Below, one piece after another: positions 4,790-63,581 of a stretch of DNA of 64,000 nt. The notes below the pieces were generated by a model that saw nothing but the letters and a program-made list of their open reading frames with translations, made no database searches and was not told the origin of the DNA. The position numbers and the translations under genes are program-made. Where the stretch lies: the IMG/VR virus record IMGVR_UViG_3300019142_000010, positions 1 through 64,000 of that record; one strand, given 5' to 3'. This DNA comes from a virus. Positions within the stretch are counted from its first letter, which is position 1. Every line of letters begins with the position of its first letter.

Positions 4790-4923
4790 AACACGGATGC
4801 GCGGCGCGGGCGTGAGGACCTGCACCGCCGCAAGCGTCGTCCATAACGGGGCTGACGACGCGCCAGTACGTCGGGGCGCGGAAACGCAGCCAGAGGCCAA
4901 GCGAACGCGCCCCACGTACCTCT

Positions 4924-9704: not shown

Positions 9705-10094
9705 ATGAGCGGCGGCGTCTACACAGATGTATTCACCGAGGCGGCAGAGATCGCGCGCCAGGAGCGGCACAAGAACCAAACGATGTCGCTCTGGGGCAAA
9801 GACCCGAATCCGCCGCGCGGCCACATCAAGTTGCTCGATGTGCAGACCTCCTGGTACGCGCTCTATTCCTCGCACGAACTGGCGACCGAAGCGACCGGGC
9901 AGACCTCGCGCCAGCGCACGCTGGACTTCTTCATCGCCGAGCGCGACGCGCTCACCGAAGAACTCGCCGCGGAAATCTCCAGCGTCGTCCTCGACGCTAA
10001 ACGCTACACGCTGGCCACCGACCCCCGCCACGAAATAGGCGACCCCTTCTACTGGCGCATCATCTGTGTCCCGACCTGTGAAGGAATCGCGTGA
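9705..10094 (+). CDS. Hypothetical head-tail joining protein
   Basis: 129 aa, tightly packed in the neck gene block. Confidence 0.45.
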   Translation: MSGGVYTDVFTEAAEIARQERHKNQTMSLWGKDPNPPRGHIKLLDVQTSWYALYSSHELATEATGQTSRQRTLDFFIAERDALTEELAAEISSVVLDAKRYTLATDPRHEIGDPFYWRIICVPTCEGIA

Positions 10095-26300: not shown

Positions 26301-27405
26301 GTTTGGTGAACATATCAAGACATTTCCGCTATTTCCCTGTGTCGGCGATGGGGTGATCGGGCAAGGCATCCACTCTCGAAAGTACGCTGACCCGCTCGAA
26401 GAGGCGATCTACGAGGTCATTTTTTACAACGTCTATGGACCGAGCGCGCCGAAGTATCTCAACAAGGGAGTGACGAGCGATGTGATGCCGGCGCTTGTGG
26501 TGCCGAACGACCATCCGCGCGATTTGACCGGAACGGTACTTTCACAGTCTGAGGTGAAGCTGTCCTTCCGTGCGCCGACGACGAACACCGGGGGCGGGCG
26601 GGTGCTGTGCTATCGGCGCGCGGGCACCGTAGCGTGGACGGAAGAGGGGCTCATCACGGCGAACCCGCGCGTGGTGGAACGCCTGGACGCCGATACGTGG
26701 TGGGAGTTCCGCATCGCATCTACGGGGACGACGCCGAACAGCTATTCGAATATCCTCCGTCTCAAAACGCTTCAACCGCAGCTTCCAGCGTGGACGGGAG
26801 CAGACGGCGCACCGGCAGAACTGGCGGCAGCGGTCGCTTCATCATCACAGATCAACCTGACGTGGGCGAATACCACGACGCCGCAACCCATCAACACCAT
26901 TAACATCGTGCGCTACAACCCGGACGGCACGAAGACCAATTTCACCGCCGCCGCGTCCACGTCCACCAGCTACAGTGACACGACCTGCAATCCCGACACG
27001 CAATACACGTACGCGCTCTTCTACGGCTTCGACGTGCCGAACTACGTCGGGCCGCACTGGTCGAATCCGACCTCGGCGCGCACGCCCGCTTCGGCCACGT
27101 CCAGCCCGACCGGATTATCGGCAGCTCGCGTCGGCACTTCACAGATCAACCTGATGTGGGTGAATAACGGCGGGACGGGAACCATCTACATCGATTGGAA
27201 GGAGGATGACGGCAATGATACCGTCTGGCCGAATGTGGCCATCACGCCCGGCGCAGTCTCATCCTACCAACACACCGGGCGGGCGGCGGGCAAGGCTTAC
27301 GCTTACCGCATCCGCAACTCACAGACCGGCACTGTCCCGTCAAACGTGGCGCGCGCCCGCACGGAAGCCATGAACGAGTACGGCGACGATTTCCCGTCCA
27401 GCTAA
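20320..27405 (+). CDS. Host-specificity / central tail fibre protein (gpJ-like, FN3-rich)
   Basis: 2361 aa. The N-terminal third is gpJ/GTA-g15-like (VKVSHPKYNWVEKLFMVIDA..). There are at least three tandem FN3-like modules (about 22800-23570), three copies of an ~85-aa beta-rich domain, and C-terminal FN3 modules (QINLTWAN.., QINLMWVN..). Confidence 0.85.
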   Translation: MAANNNIKNVKGVLASAFGVHLVNGYTFLYEVLTGTGEEKEVVVVQGLGDGHGAGWDGPREVTYRAHAIDPSRYHFHPGTFSKGEDDPVQGVDSWFPSGITYNGTAYMVAKLPPGIASEDNPNELQGIYRCLRLPNYNSLGQQIDINGVVVPNGATPEEYFYYSANPARVAAYLILFGRGLSKARIDWAAWTAWRDYCDTLIPWEDGTTTEIPVSFNWTTGGGMTPAAGGAAYKSRQTTGAHAWDSGTTTQNACPVNANRRGIEFTVGTGAFMAGLSTTTEISGSGFTYGALDIALYFETGTGALKCYARGAYLGTLGTWALGDVFRIQDDAGAWKFYKNGVLIPHGLALAAPPTGALYGAIACNAPGSGVTSAGYFPAAGVGSTTRQRMIPRFECHIAFTQETSLEDALDQVCFMACADWQETPEIRFLTPEPAVMPGLEAHAAQRLIVHHFDAREGGADNILKRTITAYPVDVRERWSKVTGAFRDLDHQDLIEDFVDDDRDALIDQAKRIVTPGQINLGNMNRSQALRVLKWLMRLRSDRIWFCELRAGADSLDVLPGDVVKVSHPKYNWVEKLFMVIDAADDGEGADERTFILQEYDPANYYHDDDHQRGRRTSAPPTPNPFAPAPVIYACDVHERLIEQQDGTVISAIHGTVTFTGFSRRQLAKVYIKPAAASDSEWELAGANPLHPHPETGMDVFEVRGVAVGNYHIKVVTESETTAQLPFSQHPVFPVTVAGKLTPPPVPTGLSATLGDNGMVRFTCTLPPVSDFAFLRVYDSTGAVVISRVDSNTWQEPPPAVGSTITRKVTAFNYSGRESGFSNPYTFTMPLPLAPTDVQVTRLKSRPSLAVTWTALEGFDYQVSRDQVTLLYSGKSSLFIHENAFTGAGTYTYYVRSVRFGQASAWVAAEVVIAPPAAPANVALTRQGRHLSLSWAVEDGQEYQVSADQATILWSGRGGSFRHENAIIGAAIYMRYVRTLKDGLASDWTLATLTVNPPPAPTGFTLQQFGATFLWKFTALSGMEYEFSPDQSLIIGRGTTGEFIETGIPSAAGTYTRYLRAVEDGVVPSAWTPAQIVVVPPQPPAVAAPDYDGLNLIYKLTASTSPHVTRYLVKDTLGNLIADDIGLEWKMKITSGTSAYTLRFYAATETGLVSTSYTEVSFTVPVPNPVLSYTLSHELDSIVHTVTPPAVLPDGLEFEFARANDGTGIIGTRKDLTLREYGYPVASRSLPRYVRTRNLAGRTSGWTAAAPALTVAVPAAPTLTKDAANGNPTFLPVQVATTTTPRARIRHTIVQVRATGPAWPSTAEGTPGTYRITGAPPTIDINWTAGGTMEFRVAHEDEFSEALNDRQWSATTSHTFPQFNDGAIDPASNFLKKASTRNPIITGGGTFKWSSDYKFSWTDPLLITGLPSIVSTNHNIEIAANPLGTSLGEGQRLVAVHTLGQTTAALSVVTLSNYEAPAEREPTQHYPLAERKAGETRVKVYTGHLLSANRFLDASVLIPRLASFEADFQNLIVGEANIGLLHATKIIADSLYGRIVFGDRIGSQNFISYGDLNPHAEEGLWHDATWNITISSDRKSIIKTSVPSGFPAGFDAKAVLTRAIHRGAGYVEWPAGMPGYTLGFNFNTSATAYNELDYAFYYDGINTYANESGTLINLQAGALPAATLFRLAVNASGQVEYWIGGVLKRTVTTPTLLYPLKIQADIYNQFVVINNMKLHGVLTDTTGKKVRWQNRINCSYDANDDLSKTGGAANTHDAGAVSVETFRSGQDVWIEHQVADLGVNRTLGFTELMNPVGGSGFKYEVTVDAGNSMYIIYNYGAAYHLTDIGAVAVGDVIRVAVENGVFTVRRNGVLRHFGTGITVPATFRAGVGFYTSGATLKTIRWGQATAKATGWQAGHNGDIEMAGTLLVDGNEIGDVGARALQGIRSDKRVRGNDGDVFLMHKVTALTVVDSKVQEDGDVWVQWASTFPGYGTDNYANGDSIRRAQVRVLNKFGEHIKTFPLFPCVGDGVIGQGIHSRKYADPLEEAIYEVIFYNVYGPSAPKYLNKGVTSDVMPALVVPNDHPRDLTGTVLSQSEVKLSFRAPTTNTGGGRVLCYRRAGTVAWTEEGLITANPRVVERLDADTWWEFRIASTGTTPNSYSNILRLKTLQPQLPAWTGADGAPAELAAAVASSSQINLTWANTTTPQPINTINIVRYNPDGTKTNFTAAASTSTSYSDTTCNPDTQYTYALFYGFDVPNYVGPHWSNPTSARTPASATSSPTGLSAARVGTSQINLMWVNNGGTGTIYIDWKEDDGNDTVWPNVAITPGAVSSYQHTGRAAGKAYAYRIRNSQTGTVPSNVARARTEAMNEYGDDFPSS

Positions 27406-37865: not shown

Positions 37866-40800
37866 CTAATTCAGCGAGGTACTGAGCAGCGCGGGCGACG
37901 AGGCGGCGGCGGCGGGGATGAACGAGGACACGTCCGCGCCCGCGCCCGGCTGTTCAATCTTGTCGATGACGACGATGCGCGCCGCCCAACTCGTCGCGCG
38001 GTCGGAATTCTCGAACGCCCCTTCCGGCAGTTCGAACGACTCGCCGCCGACGTGTTCGAGCCACGCGCGGAACTCCTGCGCGCGGCCGTCGCCGCGGTAA
38101 AAGACTCCCTCACTCATGAGAGTCGTGATGCGCCCGCCCCACTTGCACCACTCCCACATCCGGCGCACGTGCGTGATGTCCGTTCCCAGCCCGTCGCAGC
38201 CGAAGGGCGGATTAGCGATGACGCGATCAAAGCCCGTCTCCGGGACAGGGAGGCGCAGGAAATCGTCATGGATGGGGCGGTAGCCCTGCGCTTCGAGGGC
38301 GCGGACGAGCAGACCGGCAATCTCGATGAGCGTCAACTCCGAGTTCGGGTAACGGTCGCGCACGATGTTGGCGATATGCGCGCCGCCGGCTTCCGGCTCA
38401 AGGATCGTCATGCCGTCTTCGATGGCCGCGTGTTCGAGCATGAGTTCCACCACGTCGGGCGGGGTAGGGAAGTAATCGGGTGGGAATTGACCCGGATACA
38501 TCTCGCGCATGACGCGCTCGGCTCTGGTCATCTCCGCGACCGCGACCCTGCGCCCCAAGTGTTCGCGCAGCGCGGCGCGCAGTTCCGGCAGCGAATCGAT
38601 ATTCATGAGACGCAGCCGCTTGAAGTGGCCGAGGGCTTCTCGGATGCGGTCGAGCGTCCAGCGCGACGTGCGGTGCAGGCGCGCGCGCCGGTAGAAATGG
38701 CGCAGCAGGTCGGCGCGCTCGTCGCCGATAAATCGAATCTCATCGGAGACGTGTTCGCGGCAGAGTTTGAGGATGCGCGACGAGACGAGCTTCGAGCCGT
38801 CGCGGTCGCCTATCTCGCGGGCGATTTCCGCGAGGGTGTGTTTGCCGACGGACGGCCAGGGATACGCGACTTTGGCAACGTCCCCGCCGGCGCGCGCCAG
38901 TATCTCGTCGAGAGCTTCGGCGTGGGTGCGCCAGCGGATGCGGTCGGTGTGGCGCGTGAGGCGCGCTTGCAGGTCCCGCGCGTAGTTCCTGAGCGTGTCG
39001 GCCATCGCCAACTGCTCGCGCGCCGTGTCGTCGGCGCGCTCGGCCTGCATGATGCGCCGCTCGGTGTTGAGCCGTCGCGGCGAGTTGAGCGCATCGGTCG
39101 CTCTGTCTTCCATCCGGTCGGCCAGCACGCCGAAATGCCCGATAGCGTTCTGACGGACGCGCTCGCGGTTGGCGAGCAATTTTTCAAGGCGCGAGATTTC
39201 AAACACGTCGCGGCTCTGTAGCTGAACGAACTTCTCGGCCTGCGCCTCGGAGAAGAAACGAAAGCCGCCCGGCGTGTTCGTCGGTTTCCACTCGCGCTGA
39301 TAGTTGCCGTCGAGCTTGCGCGCGGCGATGCACAATTCCTCGAACGTCGTGCGGTCTTCGCGCTCGGCCAGGACGACGACCCATATCTCACACTGGCGTT
39401 TGTCGTGATAGGACTTGACGATCTCCATGTAGTTGCCCTCGCCTATCTCGATGCGCCGGATGTTCGCCTTTTCAATCATCAGGCCAGCGCGCCGCTCGTG
39501 CGCGACGTCCGCGCGCAGTTCGTCAAAGCGAGCCAGTTCTTCCTCATTCAGCTCGCGCTCGCCGGCGACGCGGATCATCCGCTCGATTTCATAAGACTTG
39601 CCCCGGCCTTTCGGGATCATCGCCTTGTCTCGTTTGAGAGCGGCGATGCCGCGCTGCCGGATGCACGTCTCGAAGTCTTCGAGCGTTTGCGGGTTCGTGA
39701 CGGCGCGCTCGCGCTCGGCCTGCGCCGCTTCGTAGCGGGCGCGCGAGGCGGCTACTCCCTCGCGATGCGCGTCCAGATCGTCGTCGGTAAGTGCATTGAC
39801 GGTCTTCGTGATGAGTTCAAGCCGGTAGGCCTGATCGTTGAAATAACGCATCGAGACGCCGCCCGCGCGGAGCCGCCCGAAAGTGAAATCCTCGATCAAG
39901 TCCCAGACGATCCGCTCGACCAGTTCATCCTTGCGCTCGCCCCGGCTGCCGATACCGCCGATACATTCGAGACGTCCTTTCTTGAACTTGTTGAGTTCGT
40001 CGGTCAGTTGTGGCCGCGAGACGATCACGCGCCGGAACATGGCCACGTGCGCCGCGGCGTCCGTCTCAGGTTGGAGGATCGTCTCCGAGAAGTAGCGGCG
40101 CACCTCTTCGAGCGCGACGCCGGGCTGCTCGTCGGCCGTCGCGCCGTCGCCGTCCGTGATGGGCGGCGGCGGCGGGGTGTCATCAAAGTGGGGACAGGTG
40201 AGACTGTGATTCGGCGTGACGTAGCCGCATCGCTGACAGCGCCCGCCGGTCGGGACTGGCGCGGCCGTCTCTGCGCTTCCCGTGCCTTCAGGCTGCGCGT
40301 TCGCGCTCGCGTCGGCGTCCCCCGTGGCGTTACTCGCCGCGGCGGTGAAAGCTTCTGGCCAGACGGCCAGAACTTCCTCGCGCGTGACGTAGGAGAGCGC
40401 GCCGCGGCGCACGCTCCATCGAGAGCCGTCCGAGAGTTCGAGCGTGATGAAATCAACCTTGTGTTTCTGCTCCTGCCCGACGGCGCGGCCGATGCGCTCG
40501 AACATCTGGTGCGCGATGTCATTGATGCGCCAGTAACCGAATGCAAAGCGCGCTTCGAGTTCGGCCTGTTTCGCGCTCGTCGCGGCGCAGATTTGCGCCC
40601 GCTCGGCGGCGGTGAATCGTTCATCGGAGGGTGCGAAGTTCTCCACGACGAGCGGCAGCCGGAAGATGTCTTGATACTTGAACAGTTCGTCGGGGCGGGT
40701 GAAGGAAGCGACGGCGGCCACGTGCAACTGCGCGTCGGTGGCGAGCGTGTGCGTCGGGACGCTGGCGGCGCGCAGCCGGTCGCGGCGCGGATCGCGCGGT

Positions 40801-41597
40801 CTGAGGTTGAGGCGCGGGCGAGCCAGGACGTACGGCACGTTGCGCCATTCAACGAGCATCCCTTCATAGCCTACCTGTCGTTGCCAGGTCTTGTATTCAA
40901 ACGTCTCACCTGTGAAGTCCTCGCGCCGGACGAGGCGCATCGCGTCGCGCGACCCGGGCGCGTGGCCGCGGCCGATGTCAACGTAGAGTTCGCGCCCGAA
41001 CTGGAAGGGGCGGCGCACTCTACCAATCGTCACCTTGTCGGCGGAATAAGACTCGCGGATGTCGCCGCCCGTCTCCAGGCGCTCCGGGTCAACCTCGACC
41101 GTGAGGCGTTCGGCCGTCAAGTCTCCGAGCGCCTCGCGCTCCGGGCCGGATTGCGAGCCGTACACGACCGTTTCTTTCTTCGGCTGGCGGCGTCGCTCGT
41201 CGGCGGCGGCGTGACGTTGCAGGGCTGAGAGCGCGCCCTGATTGGCCGCCTCTGTGATGTTGGCCGCGGCCGCTCCGTTCATGACGAGTTCGACGGCCGC
41301 CGGGAGTTCCACGCCGGCGACGAGATGCCGGCAGATTTGCAGCCGTTCGCTGCACAATTCCAGATGCGCCGTGTGGTCGCGCTCGGCGTACTGGTCGCCT
41401 TCGGCGCGCGCCCGCTCGATGTGCCGTTCGTGCCCGGCGATGGATAATTGTAAATCTTCCTCGGTGCGCTTCCAGACGGCGGGCAGTTCAAAGCCCGCGA
41501 ACGCCGTCAGGCGCGGGCGCAGTTGAAAATAGTCACGATGCCCGTCGGCGCGGGCGCGAACGCGTTGGTCACGATATTTTTTTCCTGCTCTACGCAT
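37866..41597 (-). CDS. Large polyvalent-type protein with C-terminal N6-adenine DNA methyltransferase domain
   Basis: 1243 aa. The C-terminal ~220 aa carry motif I (ILEPEAGGAHI) and motif IV (NPPF). A central zinc ribbon is present (CQRCGYVTPNHSLTCPH). No Walker A was seen. The long helical N-terminal regions resemble the LPD-type modules of polyvalent proteins (from memory). Confidence 0.8.
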   Translation of the reverse strand: MRRAGKKYRDQRVRARADGHRDYFQLRPRLTAFAGFELPAVWKRTEEDLQLSIAGHERHIERARAEGDQYAERDHTAHLELCSERLQICRHLVAGVELPAAVELVMNGAAAANITEAANQGALSALQRHAAADERRRQPKKETVVYGSQSGPEREALGDLTAERLTVEVDPERLETGGDIRESYSADKVTIGRVRRPFQFGRELYVDIGRGHAPGSRDAMRLVRREDFTGETFEYKTWQRQVGYEGMLVEWRNVPYVLARPRLNLRPRDPRRDRLRAASVPTHTLATDAQLHVAAVASFTRPDELFKYQDIFRLPLVVENFAPSDERFTAAERAQICAATSAKQAELEARFAFGYWRINDIAHQMFERIGRAVGQEQKHKVDFITLELSDGSRWSVRRGALSYVTREEVLAVWPEAFTAAASNATGDADASANAQPEGTGSAETAAPVPTGGRCQRCGYVTPNHSLTCPHFDDTPPPPPITDGDGATADEQPGVALEEVRRYFSETILQPETDAAAHVAMFRRVIVSRPQLTDELNKFKKGRLECIGGIGSRGERKDELVERIVWDLIEDFTFGRLRAGGVSMRYFNDQAYRLELITKTVNALTDDDLDAHREGVAASRARYEAAQAERERAVTNPQTLEDFETCIRQRGIAALKRDKAMIPKGRGKSYEIERMIRVAGERELNEEELARFDELRADVAHERRAGLMIEKANIRRIEIGEGNYMEIVKSYHDKRQCEIWVVVLAEREDRTTFEELCIAARKLDGNYQREWKPTNTPGGFRFFSEAQAEKFVQLQSRDVFEISRLEKLLANRERVRQNAIGHFGVLADRMEDRATDALNSPRRLNTERRIMQAERADDTAREQLAMADTLRNYARDLQARLTRHTDRIRWRTHAEALDEILARAGGDVAKVAYPWPSVGKHTLAEIAREIGDRDGSKLVSSRILKLCREHVSDEIRFIGDERADLLRHFYRRARLHRTSRWTLDRIREALGHFKRLRLMNIDSLPELRAALREHLGRRVAVAEMTRAERVMREMYPGQFPPDYFPTPPDVVELMLEHAAIEDGMTILEPEAGGAHIANIVRDRYPNSELTLIEIAGLLVRALEAQGYRPIHDDFLRLPVPETGFDRVIANPPFGCDGLGTDITHVRRMWEWCKWGGRITTLMSEGVFYRGDGRAQEFRAWLEHVGGESFELPEGAFENSDRATSWAARIVVIDKIEQPGAGADVSSFIPAAAASSPALLSTSLN

Positions 41598-46740: not shown

Positions 46741-46794
46741 CGTCTCGTTCGTTCCTCTCTCTCGTCTGCCCGCGTCGTCTCGCGGTGTGACGGA

Positions 46795-46822
46795 ACTATA
46801 TCAAAGTTTTATATAGTGTCAA
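46795..46822 (-). promoter_or_regulatory. Early promoter P4
   Basis: The minus strand reads TTGACA-ctatataaaactttga-TATAGT (16-nt spacer, extended -10 TG). Confidence 0.75.
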
Positions 46823-47067
46823 TAGGGCAAGACGCAAAAAGGCGCGTCTTTACTGCGCGCGGGACTCCTAACGGCGGGCGGACAACACTTGCCGTCGCAA
46901 AAAATTTTTCACTTTTTTTTGTGGGATGTGGGAAAAATCAATCGCCGCCCCCGGAGCTCCCCAGAGGCGGCGTCGATTTGAGTATTTTCCATCGAAAACA
47001 CTCGGCCTGTAGCTGCGGATTGTACCATGAGCGGGGGCTGGTGACTAGGCAAAATGAAAAAAGTATG

Positions 47068-47097
47068 TTGATTTTTTATAGAGTCGAAGAGTAGTAT
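47068..47097 (+). promoter_or_regulatory. Candidate rightward promoter
   Basis: TTGATT, an 18-nt spacer, then TAGTAT. The spacer contains ttttatagag, related to the P1-P4 spacer. Confidence 0.3.
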
Positions 47098-47142
47098 GCG
47101 CGGCAGTGTTCGAGCGCGAGAGAACTATTTGCCGCCAGGCTA

Positions 47143-47171
47143 TTGACAGGGAAGTACCGGGCGGCTAGGCT
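47143..47171 (+). promoter_or_regulatory. Candidate rightward promoter
   Basis: TTGACA-17 nt-TAGGCT. It would give a ~260-nt leader before the initiator gene. Confidence 0.3.
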
Positions 47172-47433
47172 CGCGCCCGATTGAGAGCGGCGCACCTTTG
47201 GCCTGAGGCGCGCGGCTCGCCGTCGTATCCTCTGCCAGCACTTAGCCTGTGGCTGGACGAGGCGGGCGGTTCAGACCGTAACGCGAAAGTGTTGCGGAAC
47301 TTTAACCGGCAGTGCTACAAACACAGCGTCCCCCCTCCCGACCTGAGAGTTGGACGGTGATTTTGTAGGCGGCCTATAGGAGCTCCAACATGCGAAGCCT
47401 AGCAATCTTCCGTGCCCCGTCGTCTATCTGCAC

Positions 47434-48825
47434 ATGGACGAGGGCAGGGAACGAGTCCACCGGCAGGGGGTGTCGTCCATGGTAAAGACGACGGAACCTC
47501 CGGCCACCAAACTCTTAATCAACGAAACCCCGCTGCAATTTCTTCCGACGCTCGCCGTGCTCATCGGCGACCGCCCGGCGCTCGCCCTGCAACAAGTTCA
47601 CTACTGGCTCAACAACGTCAACGAGCACGGACGCCGCACGGCGCATCTGCGCGAGGGGCGCTACTGGATTTACAACAGCTACGATGACTGGCACGCCGAC
47701 AAGTTCAAGATGTGGTCATTGCCGACCATCAAGCGCGTGTTCCTGTTCCTCGAACGAGAAGGCATCGTCGAGACCAGGCAATACGAACTCTCGGAAGGAA
47801 ACGGGCGGAAGTGGTACACCATCAACTACGAGCGCGTGACGGAGATCGAGCATTGCGGAGGATTGACACAGAAACAGAAACGGCGCACGCGAGCGACGAG
47901 ACAGCCCGGCCAGGACGCCGACGAAGAGTTGTCATTCGACGCCATCGGGGGGGGTGGGATCAATTTGATCCCACCCCCCCCGATGGATCAAATTGATCCC
48001 ACCTTCGGATCAGAACGATCCGTTCTCTTAGGTACAGAGAGAACTACACAAGATCGAATACCACATGCTTCGCATGGCGAAGCGAGCGAGAACGGCGGGG
48101 CGACGGCGTTAGCCCTCATCCCGCTGCGCGGGGAAGCGGCGGCGGCGACGACCGCGGCGCACGCGCAGCGCCTCGTGGTCGAGACGGACACGGTGGGCGA
48201 GTTGATCGCGGCGGCGATGCAGGCGGGCGTCCCCGTCACCGAGGACTTGATCAACGATGCCGAGCGGGTGGCGCGCGAACTGGCGCGGGGCGCGCTCGGC
48301 GGGCGGCGCCGGCCGGAGGACTGCCCGGCGTGGTTCATCCGCGGATGTTTCGGCGTGCTGCGCAACAAGGTGCGCACGTTCCGGGACGAAGACGTGCAGG
48401 GCGCGGCGGCCAAGCGGCTCTGGGCAGACTTTTGGACGATTGAGCAGGTGGCGTGGTGCCTGGACCTGCTCTTGCGTGACCCTTATCGCAAAGACTGTCG
48501 CGAGTCGTTGCTGACAGTCGAGCGCGAGATCGGCACCCGATACGCGAAGGCGTATCGAGCGACGGACGGAACAACCCCACACACAACACAACCAGACGGA
48601 AAGGACACACCAGGATATGAAAGCAGCAGCACTTTTGGAACGGCCGCCGGAGCCGGAATTGAGGCGCGAGCCGCCGACAATTACGGCGGTTTCTGCCAGC
48701 AGCCCGCAGCAGCAGCAGCAGCAGCGGCACCAGCAGCGGTTGAAGATACTGGCGCAGTTGTTGGAGGACGCGCTCATCACCTCCAACTTGTCGAACGTGA
48801 AGACGGACGAGGCGCGGCTTCGTGA
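47434..48825 (+). CDS. Replication initiator / replisome-organiser-like protein (alternative start 47479; 3' end uncertain)
   Basis: The N-terminal wHTH-like pattern LALQQVHYWLN..GRYWIYNSYDDWHADKF..WSLPTIKRVFLFLEREGIVE is typical of phage O/DnaD-like initiators (from memory). The ori-like repeats lie in its linker. Confidence 0.5.
   Translation: MDEGRERVHRQGVSSMVKTTEPPATKLLINETPLQFLPTLAVLIGDRPALALQQVHYWLNNVNEHGRRTAHLREGRYWIYNSYDDWHADKFKMWSLPTIKRVFLFLEREGIVETRQYELSEGNGRKWYTINYERVTEIEHCGGLTQKQKRRTRATRQPGQDADEELSFDAIGGGGINLIPPPPMDQIDPTFGSERSVLLGTERTTQDRIPHASHGEASENGGATALALIPLRGEAAAATTAAHAQRLVVETDTVGELIAAAMQAGVPVTEDLINDAERVARELARGALGGRRRPEDCPAWFIRGCFGVLRNKVRTFRDEDVQGAAAKRLWADFWTIEQVAWCLDLLLRDPYRKDCRESLLTVEREIGTRYAKAYRATDGTTPHTTQPDGKDTPGYESSSTFGTAAGAGIEARAADNYGGFCQQPAAAAAAAAPAAVEDTGAVVGGRAHHLQLVEREDGRGAAS
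47943..48026. repeat. Candidate origin: 43-bp perfect palindrome plus iteron-like repeats and GATC cluster
   Basis: Positions 47943-47985 read catcggggggggtgggatcaa-t-ttgatcccaccccccccgatg. The 20-bp unit GGGATCAAtTTGATCCCACC recurs as TGGATCAAaTTGATCCCACC 28 bp downstream. The palindrome cggatc-agaac-gatccg lies at 48006-48022. Confidence 0.6.
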
Positions 48826-49255
48826 TCTGCGCCGGCGCATCTTCGAGGCGGCGAAAATCTACAACGACCATCTGCGCCCGGAGCGGATACCGACCTACAA
48901 ACTGCCGGCCGTCTTCGTTCACGCCTCGCTCTACCGCGACCCGGAACACCCGTTCTGCGTGGCCGACGTGCGCCAGGCGTGGACGGAATTGAAGGGCAAC
49001 CCGGAACTGATGCTGCGCTATCTGCCCGACGGCGACCCGACGGCGCAGCACGCGCTCCTGCCACCGGCAGACCCGAACTGCCGGGAGTGCCGGGGAACGG
49101 GGATGCGGCGCGGGAGCGTCGTCTGTACGAGCTGCCGTACGTGCCCGAACTGCTTTAATTCACGGCTGGAAATTTTCGAGGTCGAGGCCGGGCAGACGGC
49201 GGCGCGGCGGTGCGGGCGGTGCTGTCCGCCGCTGCCGCCCGAGGAATTCGGCTAA
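48617..49255 (+). CDS. Hypothetical protein with DnaJ-like CxxCxGxG zinc finger (start uncertain, alternative GTG 48797)
   Basis: It contains CRECRGTGMRRGSVVCTSCRTCPNC. The 5' 209 nt overlap the initiator ORF in another frame. Confidence 0.45.
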   Translation: MKAAALLERPPEPELRREPPTITAVSASSPQQQQQQRHQQRLKILAQLLEDALITSNLSNVKTDEARLRDLRRRIFEAAKIYNDHLRPERIPTYKLPAVFVHASLYRDPEHPFCVADVRQAWTELKGNPELMLRYLPDGDPTAQHALLPPADPNCRECRGTGMRRGSVVCTSCRTCPNCFNSRLEIFEVEAGQTAARRCGRCCPPLPPEEFG

Positions 49256-49309
49256 TCGGGGGCGAGCAGAGAATCCGAATCTCCGGAACAACCCGGCACA
49301 TTTACGCAT

Positions 49310-49361
49310 CCAAGAGCGCGTGTTCGACGTTTAGACTTGCGCTCTTGGGGCGTTTTTGTTT
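49310..49361 (+). terminator. Rho-independent terminator
   Basis: A 10-bp stem ccaagagcgc / gcgctcttgg with a 19-nt loop, followed by ggcgTTTTTgTTT. Confidence 0.7.
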
Positions 49362-49473
49362 ACAAAGGAAGCAGAGCTGAGCTAGACCTTACCCCACATC
49401 TTCGCTCCCGCGACTCTCAGCGTCTCAAAGGCCGAATAATTGAAGTTTCGCAATTGACTCGGAGACCGCCCCC

Positions 49474-50217
49474 GTGAGCGTTTTGGCACCGTCGCGCCTC
49501 GGCGACTTTTTCTCTCAATACCTCGCACCGTTTTCCTCGCACGTGCACCGCAATGTGGAGATGGTCTGCGCGCTGATGACGGCGCGCTGTCTGGTGACGC
49601 AGGAACACCTGGAGCGGACGGCCATCTACGCCGACGGGATGGCGGAGATTTTCGGGCTGTCGCGGGAGCGGCGGCGCGCGCTGCGGATCGGGGCGCTGTT
49701 GCATGACGTGGGGAAGATGGGAGTCCCGGACGAAATTCTGCATAAGCCGGGCAGACTGACGGCCGCGGAATTCAACGTCATGAAGCTGCACCCGCAGATC
49801 GGGGAGCATATTCTGGCGCAGAATCACTTTCCGGTCGGCGTGACGGATTGCGTCCGCTGGCATCATGAGCGATGGGGCGGGCGGGGCTACCCGGACGGCC
49901 TGAAAGGGAAGGAGATACCGATCACGGCGCGCATTCTGGCCGTCGTTGATTGCTACGACGCGGTGCGCGAGGACAGGCCCTACCGCGCCGGGATGGACCG
50001 GCAGGAGGCGATAGACGTGTTGCGGTGCGGCTCGGAGACGATGTTCGAGCCGCTCATCGTGAAAGCCTTCGTCCAGAATTTGCACAAATTTGAACGGGAG
50101 ATAGAAAGGCACAAAGTTTCCTATACGCCGTCGCGCATCGCGCCTTCCACCCTCACAGCGGAAGCGCGGGCGGTCGAGCCGCCGCAGGGCCTCGACCCGC
50201 CGCCGCTCAAGGCCTAA
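49474..50217 (+). CDS. HD-GYP domain phosphodiesterase
   Basis: It has LLHDVGKMGVPDEIL, HPQIGEHIL, HHERWGGRGYPDGLKGKEIP and AVVDCYDAVREDRPYR. It is a stand-alone domain with no receiver or sensor. Confidence 0.8.
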   Translation: MSVLAPSRLGDFFSQYLAPFSSHVHRNVEMVCALMTARCLVTQEHLERTAIYADGMAEIFGLSRERRRALRIGALLHDVGKMGVPDEILHKPGRLTAAEFNVMKLHPQIGEHILAQNHFPVGVTDCVRWHHERWGGRGYPDGLKGKEIPITARILAVVDCYDAVREDRPYRAGMDRQEAIDVLRCGSETMFEPLIVKAFVQNLHKFEREIERHKVSYTPSRIAPSTLTAEARAVEPPQGLDPPPLKA

Positions 50218-53478: not shown

Positions 53479-53696
53479 TGCCGAATCGAGGCAAGCCCGT
53501 TCGCGTGTATCCGGAGACTGAGGCGGCCATCGCTGCTGCGAGTAAAGAGGATCGTCCCGATCTGCTCCGTCACGGACTGGCCTACGCGGTGAATGTACTG
53601 GTGATGGAAGTTTTAAATAAGAAGCCGCCGCCCACACCGCGCGAACTTAAAGCATCCAGCGCGCGGGCGCAGCAGGCGCAAAAGAAACGAACATAA
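53478..53696 (+). CDS. Hypothetical small protein (possible RHH-like)
   Basis: 72 aa starting MPNRGKPVRVYPETEAAIAAA, with a TGATG junction and GGAGGG upstream. Confidence 0.45.
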   Translation: MPNRGKPVRVYPETEAAIAAASKEDRPDLLRHGLAYAVNVLVMEVLNKKPPPTPRELKASSARAQQAQKKRT

Positions 53697-53738
53697 CGAC
53701 GGCCGCGACGAATCTTGCATCATTCGTCGCGGCCGTCG
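53697..53738. terminator. 17-bp perfect hairpin, likely bidirectional terminator
   Basis: cgacggccgcgacgaat-cttgcatc-attcgtcgcggccgtcg. On the minus strand it is followed by the T-rich TTATGTTCGTTTCTTTT. Confidence 0.6.
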
Positions 53739-54111
53739 CGGTTAGGGGTTGAAAGAAGATGCGCGGCATACCTGACAGGGTACCGTGCATTGAGCCTCAC
53801 AGTCAGCGCATAATAACAGGGAAGGCGGAATGATGAAAAGTGAGAATTCATCAATCAAACCGCGTGCCTGAGCTTTAAATCACCCCACATTGCCGGAGTC
53901 CGATAATGGCGATTATGTTATCAGCGTGGCCGCGCTCCGGGCTGGTTGAGCGGTTGTGTACCTCATAGCCGACACTAACACCTGATGGGTGATAGGTGAT
54001 GGGTGACAAGTTAATTCCTCTCAAATGCGCCGGGGAGAGGTCGAGGCACACAAAGAGGGGCGCAGCACGCGAACGCGCGGCCGAGAGAGATGAATTGTGA
54101 CCGGCGAAGAC

Positions 54112-56444: not shown

Positions 56445-57404
56445 ATGAGCACTGCAACACCCGCCCCGCACAGCACCGCACAAGAGACGCCGCGCCCGCG
56501 CGTCCTCAAGGCAAAAGACCGCGACGGACGGAAGAGCGGCAAAGGAGCCAGCGCGCCGCCCGAGGCCGCGCCCGCGCGCACGGCGACGTGGGTTGACCGC
56601 TTCGTGCGCCGCGAACTGGAAGACCCGGCGCAATTGCTCGGCAATGACCTGAACTGGCGCGGGCATCCCCGCTACCAGCAGATGGCCATGATCGGGGTGC
56701 TCGAAACGCTCGGCTGGCTCGATGAGGTGAAAGTCAACATCAACACCGGGCGCGTCTTCAACGGCCACATGCGCTGTGAGATTGCGATCTCGAAGGGCGA
56801 GCCGGTGCCGACGAGCTACTACGATCTGACGGAAGAGGAAGAGCGGATGGCGCTGGCCACGTTCGACCCGCTGGCCTCGCTCGCTTTCGTTGCGAGCAAA
56901 GAGAACTACGACGCTCTGGCCGACCTGCCGGGCGTCGCGCAGGCCGCCGACGGGCTGCAAAAGCTCGTGGCGCACATGGCCGGCCGGGGCAACATCCAGG
57001 CGGCCTATGAAACGAATTTTCTCTCAGGATTTTTGGATGCTGCCAGCGCAGAGGCGACGACGACCGCCGGCGCGCAGGCACCGGGAGCTGCTCCGGGCGC
57101 GAGTGGGAACGCGCCCGAATCTGTTGCAGGGGCGGCTTCCGTGGGCGACGGCCAAAGAGGAACAGCGCCGGGTCTGCCGGGGAGTGCTTCGTTAGTGGAG
57201 GCGGAGCATGCAGACCCGAGCGCGGCGGCCGTCGCCGAATATCTCAAGGTCGTCTTCGCGTTTCTGCCGCACCAGAAGCGCGCGCTGTTCGACCTCATCA
57301 ACCGCACGCGCAAGGAGCGTGCGTTGGGCGAGGCGACGCAATCGGAAATTTTATTGATTTTGTTGGGGGTGCCACTGAGCGATGATTCTGATACCGCGAG
57401 CTGA
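56445..57404 (+). CDS. ParB N-terminal-like (ParB/Srx fold) domain protein
   Basis: NWRGHPRYQQMAMIGVLETLGW..VNINTGRVFNGHMRCE follows the N-x-R-x-H..Q..(D/N)GHxR pattern of ParB-like nuclease domains. The C-terminal half is low-complexity. Confidence 0.55.
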   Translation: MSTATPAPHSTAQETPRPRVLKAKDRDGRKSGKGASAPPEAAPARTATWVDRFVRRELEDPAQLLGNDLNWRGHPRYQQMAMIGVLETLGWLDEVKVNINTGRVFNGHMRCEIAISKGEPVPTSYYDLTEEEERMALATFDPLASLAFVASKENYDALADLPGVAQAADGLQKLVAHMAGRGNIQAAYETNFLSGFLDAASAEATTTAGAQAPGAAPGASGNAPESVAGAASVGDGQRGTAPGLPGSASLVEAEHADPSAAAVAEYLKVVFAFLPHQKRALFDLINRTRKERALGEATQSEILLILLGVPLSDDSDTAS

Positions 57405-59839: not shown

Positions 59840-60628
59840 ATGATGAAGTCAACGGTAGGAAAGAAACAGTCCGCGTATAACTCGGCCTTCGTCGCGCTCG
59901 CGGCGAACATCGAGCAGTACGTCTCGCGCGCCGAGATCGACAACCTGGTTGATAGAACGGTCGCGGAGATTCGGCGCGTGACGGCCGGCAAGCGCGCGGC
60001 CTATGCGTGGTCAGGCGGGAAGGATTCAATCGCCTTGGGGGGCGTCTGCCGTCTCGCCGGCGTTACGCCCTGTCTGCTCGGCATGACGAGCCTGGAATAC
60101 CCGGAAATGCTCGCGTGGCTGACCGACAACATGCCGGACGAGCTGACGGTGATTAACACCGGACAGGACCTGAACTGGCTGGCGAAAAATCTCCAGATGC
60201 TATTTCCGCAGGATGCGAAGACGGCGGCCACGTGGTTCAAGCAGGTGCAGCACCGGGCGCAGGAGCAATACTACCGGCAGGAACGTCTCGACCTCATCAT
60301 CCTCGGCCGTCGCCGCGCCGACGGTAACTATTGCGGCGCTCCGGGCGAGAACGTCTACACCTCGAAGGGCGTCACCAGGTATAGCCCCATCTGGCAATGG
60401 GGACACGAGCACGTGATCGCTTTCAATCACTACTACGGTCTTCCCTGCCCCCCGATCTACACGTGGCCGAACGGGTTTGTCGTCGGCACGGGAGCGTGGG
60501 CGGCCAGACAGTACACCGGCTCCATCGAGAACGGCTGGCGCGAAGTCTTTTCTATTGACCCTTCCGTGGTTGAAGGCGCTGCCACACGGATTGAGTCGGC
60601 GCGCTCTTTTCTGGCGTCGCGGTCGTGA
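59840..60628 (+). CDS. PP-loop ATP pyrophosphatase, PAPS-reductase-like (short form)
   Basis: The PP-loop is YAWSGGKDSIAL. LIILGRRRADG and WQWGHEHVIAFNHYYGLP are typical of the PAPS_reduct family. I did not see a CysH-type ECGLH motif. Confidence 0.75.
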   Translation: MMKSTVGKKQSAYNSAFVALAANIEQYVSRAEIDNLVDRTVAEIRRVTAGKRAAYAWSGGKDSIALGGVCRLAGVTPCLLGMTSLEYPEMLAWLTDNMPDELTVINTGQDLNWLAKNLQMLFPQDAKTAATWFKQVQHRAQEQYYRQERLDLIILGRRRADGNYCGAPGENVYTSKGVTRYSPIWQWGHEHVIAFNHYYGLPCPPIYTWPNGFVVGTGAWAARQYTGSIENGWREVFSIDPSVVEGAATRIESARSFLASRS

Positions 60629-61326: not shown

Positions 61327-62451
61327 GTGACGATTCTCAAGAAACAAACGGTCGATCTGGATGTGCTGACGCTCTCGCGCCGGCGCATCGCTCGTCTCTT
61401 CGATGAGTTCGATGAAGTGTCGGTGATGTTCTCCGGTGGGAAAGACTCAACCGTCGCTCTCAATCTTACACTCGAAGAGGCCGAGCGCAGAAACCGCTTG
61501 CCCTTGGATGTGGTCTTTTACGATGAAGAGGCTTTGCCGCCTGAAACCATTGAATACTGCGAGCGCGTCGCCCGCGATCCTCGTCTCACCTTACGCTGGT
61601 ACTGCCTACCTATCCAGCACCGCAATGCGTGTTCTCGCAAAGCACCCTACTGGCATCCATGGGCTCCTGAGGATCAGCCCTTGTGGTGTCGCACCCTACC
61701 ATCAGGCGCGCTCACAGTATTGAGCGGTTTCAAACGGCAAGCCATCCCCCAGTGTAACGAACTCATCTACCCCGACCGCTCGAAGCGCACGGCCGTCGTC
61801 ATGGGCATCCGCGCCAGCGAATCGCTCCGGCGCTACCGCTCGGTCGCGCAGCGCGTCGAGGACAACTGGATATCGCCCGATCCCAACTGTCCGCACGTCT
61901 CACTGGTCAAGCCGATTTACGACTGGCTGACGGCGGACGTCTGGACGGCTCCGGCCGTCTTCGGGTGGGACTACAACACGACCTACGACGTGCTTTCACG
62001 TCTCGGCATTTCGCCTAACGATCAACGGGTCTGCCCGCCCTACGGGGAAGAGCCGCTTCGTGGTCTGTGGATGTACGCCCAAGGCTGGCCGGAGCTGTGG
62101 GAACGCATGACGCGCCGGGTACCGGGCGCTCGCACGGCCGCGCGCTACTCGCGCTCGCCGCTCTACGGGTTCGGCGCGGACGTCGAGCGCCCGGCCGGGC
62201 TCTCCTGGCAAGAGGCCATCGCGGCAGCGATTGAGAAGTGGCCGGCCGCACAGCGCGCGCTCATCGCCGAGCGCATCCAGTGGGAAGTCGAAAACCACTT
62301 TCGCAAAAATCCTCAGTCGTCCATCCCGGAGACTGACGCAACGATGTATGACGGCGGCGTGACGTGGCGTTTCCTCTACACGCTGGCCGTCCGCGGCGAC
62401 CTCAAAGGGCGCAGGCGTCCCGACATGCACGCGCCGAAGAAAAACGACTAA
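61327..62451 (+). CDS. IbrA-like PAPS-reductase/PP-loop protein with C-terminal extension, paralog 1
   Basis: It has MFSGGKDSTVAL, YDEEALPPETIEY, YWHPWAPED, CPPYGEEPL and ARTAARYSRSPLYG. The length and extension fit the PAPS_reduct+DUF3440 (IbrA) architecture, from memory. Confidence 0.75.
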   Translation: MTILKKQTVDLDVLTLSRRRIARLFDEFDEVSVMFSGGKDSTVALNLTLEEAERRNRLPLDVVFYDEEALPPETIEYCERVARDPRLTLRWYCLPIQHRNACSRKAPYWHPWAPEDQPLWCRTLPSGALTVLSGFKRQAIPQCNELIYPDRSKRTAVVMGIRASESLRRYRSVAQRVEDNWISPDPNCPHVSLVKPIYDWLTADVWTAPAVFGWDYNTTYDVLSRLGISPNDQRVCPPYGEEPLRGLWMYAQGWPELWERMTRRVPGARTAARYSRSPLYGFGADVERPAGLSWQEAIAAAIEKWPAAQRALIAERIQWEVENHFRKNPQSSIPETDATMYDGGVTWRFLYTLAVRGDLKGRRRPDMHAPKKND

Positions 62452-63581
62452 TGGGACTCAAAAAGGAAATCCTGGAGAAGAACGTCATGGAGCTTGCGCG
62501 CGAGCGGTTCGCGCGCTCGTTTGACGAGTACGACGACGTGGCCGTGTCTTTCAGCGGCGGCAAGGATTCGACCGTCTGTTTGAACCTGGCGCTGGCGGAA
62601 GCTCGCCGGCGCGGTCGCCGTCTGACGGTCTTTTGCTTCGACGAGGAAGCGCTGCACCCGCCGACCGTGGAATACCTGGAGCGCGTGGCCAGCCTGCCCG
62701 ACGTTGATTTCCGCTGGTACTGCATTCCGGTCGAACACCGGAACGCCTGCTCACCCAAGAAACCTTACTGGCATCCGTGGGCGCCGGAGGATCGCGCGCT
62801 GTGGGTGCGCGAGTTGCCGCCGGGCGCGATCACGGAGTTGCCCGGCCACCGGCGCGAGCCGATTTCCGGTTCGATGGCCTACTGCTTTCCGAACGAGGGG
62901 CGCACCATCGGACTCATTCTCGGCATTCGCGCCGATGAATCTCTGCGCCGCTACATGAGCGTGACGCACGCGGTCGAAGACAACTGGATCAGCGTGGACT
63001 CGCACGCGCCCTGGATGGCGAAATTAAAACCTATCTTCGACTGGACGGCCGACGATGTGTGGACGGCCACACAGCGCGAGGGATGGGACTATAACCGCAC
63101 CTATGACTTGATGGCGCGCGTCGGCATGCGCTACGTCGATCAGCGCGTGTGTCCGCCGTTCGGGGAAGAGCCGTTGGCCAACCTCTGGATATATCAGCAG
63201 TGCTGGCCGGAGATGTGGGAGCGGATGACCCGGAGAGTGCCGGGCGCGCGGACGGCGGCCAAGTATTCGCGCTCGCCGCTCTACGGTTACGGCGGCGTCC
63301 CGAAAGACCCCTCGAAGTCCTGGCAGGAGATGATTGCCGAACGCCTGGCGCGCTGGCCGGAACCCTACCGCACGGCCATCGCCAACCGGCTCCGCGGCGA
63401 GATTGAGCGCCATTTCGACAAGAACCCGGATGAGCCGATTGTTGACCGCAGAACCGACAACCCCGACGGCGGGCTGTCGTGGGAGTTCCTTTACATGGTC
63501 GCGCTGCGCGGCGATTTGAAGGGACGCAAGAAAGTCTTTTTCAAGAGCACCGAGAAGTTCCTCGCGAACAAAAAGAAATGA
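62451..63581 (+). CDS. IbrA-like PAPS-reductase/PP-loop protein, paralog 2
   Basis: The ATG at 62451 forms a TAATG junction. It is collinear with paralog 1 (SFSGGKDSTVCL, FDEEALHPPTVEY, YWHPWAPED, CPPFGEEPL, ARTAAKYSRSPLYG). Confidence 0.75.
   Translation: MGLKKEILEKNVMELARERFARSFDEYDDVAVSFSGGKDSTVCLNLALAEARRRGRRLTVFCFDEEALHPPTVEYLERVASLPDVDFRWYCIPVEHRNACSPKKPYWHPWAPEDRALWVRELPPGAITELPGHRREPISGSMAYCFPNEGRTIGLILGIRADESLRRYMSVTHAVEDNWISVDSHAPWMAKLKPIFDWTADDVWTATQREGWDYNRTYDLMARVGMRYVDQRVCPPFGEEPLANLWIYQQCWPEMWERMTRRVPGARTAAKYSRSPLYGYGGVPKDPSKSWQEMIAERLARWPEPYRTAIANRLRGEIERHFDKNPDEPIVDRRTDNPDGGLSWEFLYMVALRGDLKGRKKVFFKSTEKFLANKKK

Follow-up and report, generated by a model that had tools for sequence, protein, structure and literature searches.

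The stretch of DNA analysed here (the window, 64,000 nucleotides) belongs to a tailed phage, with TerL, portal, major head and tape-measure proteins all encoded in it, and no integrase or lysogeny module was found among its larger open reading frames. The predicted HD-GYP phosphodiesterase gene under study is flanked by structural and replication genes, a bona fide phage setting, and the DnaD-like gene upstream of it marks the module as a replication or early one (Table 1).

Table 1. Features of the HD-GYP locus, with positions counted from the first nucleotide of the window.
Feature	Position	Strand	Remarks
Replication initiator / DnaD-like helicase loader, 463 aa	47434..48825	+	PHROG 6493 (1.6e-27), PHROG 428 (5.7e-10); Pfam none
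152-aa gene, function not assigned, last before the terminator	48797..49255	+	51% identity in L247; no Pfam match
Conserved intergenic block, ~100 nt	49305..49410	+	Alignment with L001 and L003; overlaps the hairpin
Intrinsic-terminator-like hairpin	49309..49361	+	RNA fold dG -30 kcal/mol, z=-4.1
HD-GYP phosphodiesterase gene (predicted)	49474..50217	+	GTG start, 247 aa, single domain
Cys39 codon TGT	49588..49590	+	PmGH Asp183 position, by alignment to 4mcw
V41 codon	49594..49596	+	PmGH Glu185 (third-metal ligand) position, by alignment to 4mcw
HDVGK, aa 77-81	49702..49716	+	H77 and D78 metal ligands; K81 equivalent to PmGH K225
HHERWGGRGYP, aa 130-140	49861..49893	+	Includes metal ligands H130 and H131 and, as Y139, the Tyr of GYP
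G135 codon	49876..49878	+	Gly at the consensus Asp of HHExxDGxGYP
DCYDA (aa 159-163)...RPYR (aa 168-171)	49948..49986	+	D159 metal ligand, D162 structural, R168/R171 the guanine-reading Rxx(K/R)
VRR-NUC family nuclease gene, 224 aa	50252..50926	+	PDB 4qbl 'VRR-NUC' E=1.8e-8; PHROG 824 1.5e-24

The product of the open reading frame is a true single-domain HD-GYP protein. A GGAG sequence is located 13 nt upstream of the GTG start, and the choice of this start is supported by the conservation of N-terminal residues (RLxxF..YL) across homologues. Pfam HD_5 matched residues 43-189 with an E-value of 1.4e-32 (113 bits against a cut-off of 27.2), Pfam HD matched at 3.8e-20, and the best NCBIfam match was a model for a response-regulator c-di-GMP phosphodiesterase, in its HD-GYP portion. 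No second domain was found in the 247 residues by Pfam or NCBIfam. An earlier note on this DNA had described a stand-alone HD-GYP domain with the hallmark blocks HDVGK, HHERWGGRGYP and DCYDA..RPY, a Gly for the usual Asp in the second block, and no sensor or receiver domain. Each block was found in its place, the Gly was read directly as G135, and this description was confirmed. An AF2 model built from 26 homologues (pLDDT 87.8, pTM 0.87) consists of two helices (aa 1-41) lying against a compact helical domain and a low-confidence tail (aa ~213-247), the latter being disordered as modelled. When this model was compared with the PDB by Foldseek, the top matches were PA4781 (4r8z), PmGH (4mcw) and DvhD (9rbz), all of them HD-GYP proteins with a probability of 1.00 and TM-scores of 0.66-0.70 (normalised to the query); E-values were 2e-11 for PA4781 and 1e-10 for PmGH, at about 31-33% identity in those alignments. 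By sequence, the PDB matches were V-cGAP3 (5.8e-34), PmGH (1e-31) and PA4781 (2e-27).

The hairpin located 5' of the gene is a credible intrinsic terminator. It spans 49309-49352 and is built on perfect 10-bp arms (CCAAGAGCGC at 49310-49319 and GCGCTCTTGG at 49340-49349) with extra G-C and G-U pairs; UUUUUGUUU follows directly on its 3' side, and the element as a whole (49309-49361) comprises the hairpin and then TTTTTGTTT. An equally good fold was obtained from 1 of 200 shuffled sequences, the inner part of the hairpin was also recovered by a terminator scan, and a related phage (L002) carries an analogous 17-bp hairpin at the equivalent place. The earlier note's placement of the gene after a strong terminator (49310-49361) was therefore upheld. 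Its claim that the gene forms its own transcription unit held for the upstream side, where the terminator lies, but not for the downstream side, as 35 bp separate the stop codon of the HD-GYP gene from the start of the VRR-NUC gene, an interval in which the terminator scan gave no terminator-like site. From this arrangement the HD-GYP and VRR-NUC genes are predicted to be co-transcribed, probably as a shared unit. With the nuclease gene so close downstream and the DnaD-like initiator upstream, the HD-GYP gene is taken to open a short unit within the replication module and is not an isolated moron.

The conserved intergenic block follows the pattern CGCATCnAAG ... TTGCGC ... GTTTACAA ... CCCCAC, and TTGCGC-N-TTACAA occurs once in the window against 0.05 occurrences expected. 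The block may be a candidate promoter/operator or regulatory site of the HD-GYP unit. A repeated phage promoter motif was ruled out, the block being unique within the window. The upstream region was likewise judged free of a c-di-GMP riboswitch or any other known RNA: across the window Rfam gave no match at its gathering threshold, and a search of 49200-49560 at E<=10 brought up no meaningful one.

The active site was compared by alignment to PDB sequences and to 120 homologues. The protein has the HD-superfamily ligand set H...HD...H...HH...D, and all seven metal ligands were accounted for, H45, H77-D78, H106, H130-H131 and D159 corresponding to H189, H221-D222, H250, H276-H277 and D305 of PmGH. 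Residues that bind substrate are present (K81, K91-P92-G93 of the KPG motif, and R168-P-Y-R171), and Y139, I148 and D162 are also retained. With the metal site intact, a cyclic-dinucleotide phosphodiesterase is a reasonable reading of the protein. In the comparison with cellular binuclear, non-E/D HD-GYPs (with PA4781, 4r8z, as the structural reference and PmGH, 4mcw, as the mechanistic one), the likeness covers the fold, the ligand set, the Lys of HDxGK, KPG, the Tyr of GYP and RxY(K/R); PmGH, however, has a GAF domain and PA4781 a REC domain, whereas the phage protein is without sensor or receiver, and relative to PmGH it has Cys for Asp183, Gly for the Asp of HHExxDGxGYP and Val for Glu185. 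In the trinuclear (E/D-T-G) subfamily, to which PmGH and TM0186 belong, the carboxylate at the Glu185 position bridges the third metal. No carboxylate is present there in the phage protein, where Val41 is found instead, as in its closest cellular relatives; the protein is therefore assigned to the binuclear-type subfamily, and a third metal is not expected.

Two near-invariant Asp residues are replaced in the phage protein. In the GYP loop, HHE, GxGYP and Tyr139 of the HHExx(D/N)GxGYP consensus are kept and Gly135 takes the D/N position, at which Asp was found in 114 of 123 aligned sequences and G, N, N, G and A in the phage clade described below. No stated role for this Asp was found in the literature, and alanine mutants of PmGH at G, Y and P of GYP stay active (PMC4159591). 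The second departure, which was absent from the earlier note, is Cys39 as aligned to PmGH Asp183: of about 108 aligned homologues, 98 carry Asp here, and Cys is exclusive to the phage clade (5/5); V-cGAP3 has Ser, and in several viral HD-GYPs the residue is Ser or His. Asp183 is the proposed general acid of PmGH, and the D183A exchange abolishes activity (PMC4159591). As that mutant is inactive and Cys39 is found in all five clade members, activity of the phage enzyme could be low or altered. An Asp at this position is nevertheless dispensable in the family, given that V-cGAP3 is active with Ser and that those viral HD-GYPs lack the Asp as well. The clade-wide loss of a residue essential to PmGH bears on whether that residue is the general acid in HD-GYP enzymes.

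These replacements also raise the possibility that the protein is a crippled enzyme serving as a binder or regulator, either as a sponge for c-di-GMP or another dinucleotide, or by using its altered GYP loop to dock with GGDEF cyclases of the host in the manner of RpfG, for which GYP-dependent HD-GYP::GGDEF interactions are documented (PMC4159591). The loss of hydrolysis in PmGH D183A, the invariance of Cys39 in the clade and the confinement of G, N or A at the GYP-loop Asp to the clade are consistent with such a role, as is the existence of non-catalytic HD-GYP receptors, one of which, DvhD, was among the top fold matches. DvhD, however, has lost both HD and HH, with SQ and MN at these positions, whereas both are intact in the phage protein, in which purifying selection has strictly preserved K81 and the seven metal ligands. 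A stoichiometric sponge would have no need of an intact metal centre, and V-cGAP3 is an active enzyme that lacks the Asp of the PmGH-183 position. A role mainly as a binder or protein-interaction partner is regarded as unlikely.

Four close homologues (P0002-P0005, 58-63% identity) were retrieved by a word-indexed search of 5.8 billion clusters, and together with the phage protein they form a five-member phage HD-GYP clade recovered in 198 of 200 neighbour-joining bootstrap replicates; no stable sister group emerged, P0026 taking that place in 34 of 200. The neighbourhoods of P0002-P0005 are alike, with a replication-like gene, the HD-GYP gene and then a gene of 222-235 aa. The order HD-GYP followed by VRR-NUC was found in at least eight phage contigs (L001-L004, L247, L248 and the IMG/VR contigs L007 and L008). 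In L247, which encodes P0026 (50% identity), synteny extends through a cupin-like gene and PAPS-reductase genes. The pair is also kept in L248, which encodes P0011. L248, L007 and L008 still have the canonical Asp, so that its exchange for Cys took place within the phage lineage. The contigs that carry orthologues measure 65,487, 65,121 and 65,507 bp, and their near-equal sizes suggest complete genomes of about 65 kb.

Between phages, the HD-GYP proteins are 58-59% identical and their syntenic neighbours 45-70%, and the position of the gene is constant among phages diverged to 43-59% identity. With dN/dS values of 0.19-0.40, and with GC and GC3 (0.815) equal to those of the phage genome, the HD-GYP gene is an old, selected and stably inherited component of these phages. 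A neutral passenger, that is, a host fragment caught by chance and with no role in infection, would fit the clear descent from a host gene described below, but the constant genomic position across such divergent phages, the purifying selection and a composition fully ameliorated to that of the phage make this explanation highly improbable.

An exhaustive search of 1.84 billion representatives returned the query alone as a representative of the clade. No new clade member was among the best 80 of at least 600 matches in a metagenome scan, in which one known member (L087, encoding P0002) was recovered, and none was among the best 80 of at least 600 matches in a genome scan. Clade-specific patterns gave no relative in IMG/VR; with a broader pattern set, at least 159 viral contigs there proved to carry HD-GYP relatives. 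Among the best 80, about twenty are stand-alone open reading frames of less than 250 aa, the viral context having been checked for two. Not every short HD-GYP close to the clade is carried by a phage, as P0080 and P0076 lie among cellular genes.

The nearest cellular proteins among the matches listed (48-57% identity across the HD-GYP domain) were all from Acidobacteriota, chiefly from Blastocatellia/Pyrinomonadaceae MAGs. They are proteins of 650-850 aa with an N-terminal multi-TM region, an HD-GYP domain, a GAF domain and often a GGDEF domain. Those examined as open reading frames in L090, L100 and L103 share with the phage protein the Val at the Glu185 position and the PAAGLA linker, but retain both Asp residues that are substituted in the phage clade. 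The PAAGLA motif is found just after the HD-GYP domain in phage and cellular proteins alike, and in the cellular ones it precedes GAF. On these sequence grounds, membrane-HD-GYP-GAF(-GGDEF) proteins of Blastocatellia/Pyrinomonadaceae are the probable source of the phage gene, and the simplest history is one in which the hydrolase module alone was captured from a host c-di-GMP turnover gene: an ancestor of the phage family would have copied the module out of such a protein without taking its sensor, its GAF domain or the cyclase that opposes the hydrolase. One phage contig, which encodes P0003, was binned in a Pyrinomonadaceae MAG. The homology of the cellular relatives and this one binning label point to an acidobacterial host, and the phage is probably one of soil Acidobacteria, an abundant soil phylum in which almost nothing is known of molecular conflict between phage and host. 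The evolutionary route suggested here is thus that of a hydrolase module cut from a host sensor-hydrolase-cyclase and long kept beside a nuclease of the replication module.

The earlier note had held that known phage counter-enzymes use other folds, which is outdated: HD-GYPs of jumbo phages were predicted to act in counter-nucleotide defence by Iyer et al. in 2021 (PMC7824862), and in a 2026 preprint a purified phage HD-GYP degrades 3'3'-cGAMP in vitro, the accessible part of that preprint reporting no c-di-GMP assay of the enzyme (10.64898/2026.07.21.739742). These earlier examples (the jumbo-phage proteins of Iyer 2021, MaAM05, and Ph-HD-GYP-2 of the preprint) resemble the present protein in being phage-encoded HD-GYPs and proposed unregulated erasers of nucleotide signals. 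The Microcystis phage MaAM05 protein, annotated '3'3'-cGAMP-specific phosphodiesterase 3', is 38% identical over 60% of the query; Ph-HD-GYP-2 was compared through its description in the preprint. They come, however, from jumbo phages (270-310 kb) of other hosts, whereas the present protein belongs to a phage of about 65 kb and has a Cys/Gly active-site variant. Phage HD-GYP enzymes had therefore been predicted before, with one of them shown to be active, and judging by the alignments the one unusual trait here is the pair of changed active-site residues. The phylogenetic affinities speak for an independent acquisition, from an acidobacterial gene, by phages of ~65 kb whose host phylum has been little studied. 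With this protein the known range of phage HD-GYPs reaches beyond jumbo phages and takes in soil phages of ordinary size (~65 kb), whose hosts are probably Acidobacteriota.

We infer the enzymatic activity, substrate, product, timing of expression and benefit to the phage as follows. It is slightly better than an even prospect that the protein is a constitutive binuclear cyclic-dinucleotide phosphodiesterase that converts c-di-GMP to pGpG and so lowers host c-di-GMP without sensory control. Expressed with the replication-module genes in early or middle infection, as the first gene of the HD-GYP and VRR-NUC unit, it would open c-di-GMP to linear pGpG with no input signal required and push the infected cell to low c-di-GMP; the likely benefit would lie in switching off matrix and surface programmes that depend on c-di-GMP, or other responses gated by this signal. 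As the clade has Cys at the Asp183 position and has lost the GYP-loop Asp, catalysis is assumed to proceed without the Asp183 equivalent, as it does in V-cGAP3 with Ser. As there is no Glu185-type ligand (V41), the first hydrolysis step alone, to pGpG, is expected; binuclear-type HD-GYPs are usually expected to halt at this product, a rule to which exceptions exist.

Reprogramming of c-di-GMP and destruction of immune signals are the two leading options for the role of the enzyme. [quoted passage not shown] Rxx(K/R) reads the guanine of c-di-GMP and is regarded as a c-di-GMP signature, and RxxQ/N is that of cGAMP-selective HD-GYPs (GAPs: PmxA, Bd2325); the motif of the phage protein is RPYR and not RxxQ or RxxN. 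Directly upstream of the HD-GYP gene in L248 lies a gene for a REC-GGDEF cyclase with an intact GGEEF and an RxxD I-site, and the presence of this cyclase beside the HD-GYP suggests that manipulation of the c-di-GMP pool is a trait of the phage family.

The main rival to c-di-GMP reprogramming is an immune-signal eraser, which would hydrolyse cyclic (oligo)nucleotide defence signals before their effectors are activated, candidate substrates being 3'3'-cGAMP, further CBASS products, or the c-di-GMP that CdnE synthesises for bacterial STING. Both the 2021 prediction for jumbo-phage HD-GYPs (PMC7824862) and the degradation of 3'3'-cGAMP by a phage enzyme, as given in the accessible preprint text (10.64898/2026.07.21.739742), argue for it. 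The best PDB sequence match is itself a 3'3'-cGAMP phosphodiesterase, Vibrio V-cGAP3 (5z7c), which likewise lacks Asp at the PmGH-183 position, having Ser there, and likewise carries RxYR, so that the RxYR motif is no bar to cGAMP as a substrate. V-cGAP3, however, was merely 12th in the Foldseek ranking, and it differs in being a tandem HD-[HD-GYP] protein of 463 aa with a degenerate N-terminal HD, against a single domain in 247 aa, in keeping Asp in HHEKLDGTGYP, and in being a cellular regulator of chemotaxis and colonisation. The absence of all regulatory domains fits a counter-defence enzyme, and the window holds other apparent anti-restriction and DNA-modification genes, but the RxxQ/N signature of cGAMP-selective HD-GYPs is absent and the cellular proteins closest to the phage protein serve in housekeeping c-di-GMP turnover and carry GAF and GGDEF domains. 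Overall, immune-signal erasure is possible but improbable. Removal of cyclic-nucleotide signals would be a possible common purpose with Acb1, Apyc1, Acb2 and Tad1/2, although their folds (2H phosphoesterase, metallo-beta-lactamase, sponges) are unrelated and they have no sequence or fold similarity to the phage HD-GYP. If the substrate is a defence signal, the clade would constitute a further, independently acquired lineage of anti-CBASS enzymes.

It is conceivable, with a low probability, that Cys for Asp183 and Gly, Asn or Ala for the GYP-loop Asp, changes that became fixed in the clade under purifying selection, are adaptive and give the enzyme a new catalytic or specificity profile, for example one that is thiol/redox-gated or aimed at a defence nucleotide that is neither c-di-GMP nor 3'3'-cGAMP. 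Were this so, the clade would represent a separate class of counter-signalling enzymes, which phages had drawn from the c-di-GMP machinery of the host itself. The combined signature of R-C-[LV]-V-T-x-x-H and HHExx[GNA]GxGYP was found in 0 of 259 other proteins retrieved. P0210, an uncharacterised protein of 229 aa with an RRC motif that surfaced in the exhaustive search of 1.84 billion representatives, shows the Cys alone.

Seven residues before Cys39, the residue standing at the position of Asp183 in the PmGH reference, a second cysteine (Cys32) was found to be invariant in the five-member phage clade formed by the window HD-GYP protein and P0002-P0005. It was also present in P0026, the homologue from related phage L247, while the cellular relatives carry Ala at this position. 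Lying beside the metal site, the C-x6-C pair (C32/C39) may have a bearing on redox or metal chemistry. Following the HD-GYP domain, a short linear motif, P-A-A-G-L-A, was common to the phage proteins and to acidobacterial HD-GYP-GAF proteins, and may represent a linker or docking motif; in the window protein it is degenerate (PPQGLD). PAAGLA-like tails were also seen in two more short stand-alone HD-GYPs from the search of representatives, P0210 (229 aa) and P0182 (250 aa), in which the PmGH-183 position was again occupied by a residue other than Asp (RRC.. and ARH.., respectively).

Upstream of the HD-GYP gene, an intergenic block (CGCATCnAAG, TTGCGC, GTTTACAA, CCCCAC) has been kept in three phages. 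The block occurs once within the window, where it overlaps the terminator hairpin, and gave no match in Rfam; it may serve as a promoter or operator. In related phage L248 (ENA AH_farmland_Scaff5391598), the HD-GYP orthologue is directly preceded by a gene for a REC-GGDEF diguanylate-cyclase-like protein, in which GGEEF is intact and an RxxD I-site is present. Approximately nine residues after NRR, a position occupied by Asp/Glu in canonical cyclases and by Ser in Hypr GGDEFs, this protein has Gln. The presence of a 'writer' and an 'eraser' in one phage is an unusual pairing.

Coordinates of the features described (window unless another phage is named)
Feature	Position	Strand	Remark
2361-aa ORF	20320-27405	+	downstream of tape-measure gene
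1243-aa protein gene	37866-41597	-
Divergent intergenic region	46741-47433		between leftward genes (up to 46740) and rightward replication genes
Promoter	46822-46795	-	TTGACA-16-TATAGT
Terminator-like hairpin	46943-46972	-	13-bp stem
Conserved upstream block	49305-49410; L001 ~9850-9950; L003 ~4800-4910
Cys32 codon	49567-49569
P-A-A-G-L-A motif	50200-50215		C-termini of P0002-P0006, P0011, P0015
Terminator-like hairpin	53696-53739	-	18-bp stem
ParB/methyltransferase-like gene	56445-57404		weak match
PAPS-reductase-like genes (three)	59840-60628, 61327-62451, 62364-63581	+	near right end
L248 REC-GGDEF gene	798-1721

Elsewhere in the window, PHROG 2302 (PAPS reductase) was matched by two of the three PAPS-reductase-like genes; the counterparts of these two in related phages contain PAPS_reduct and DUF3440. 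Together with the ParB/methyltransferase-like gene, the three form a module, also seen in the related phages L001, L002 and L247, that is probably involved in DNA modification or anti-restriction. The 1243-aa protein had no match in Pfam; its C-terminal 300 aa matched phage proteins of very large size that carry the label 'DNA methyltransferase' (PHROG 15406, 4e-116). It could be an anti-restriction protein of the polyvalent type. The product of the 2361-aa ORF is presumably a giant tail fibre or a protein that recognises the host. The promoter in the divergent region is near-consensus, and both tabulated hairpins are very strong.

Among the loci retrieved, L005 and L006 carried an identical phage sequence (0 differences in 13,088 bp), obtained from ENA assembly ERZ27286106 and a Logan assembly of SRR5855425; the two either come from one sample or share a source in the very recent past.
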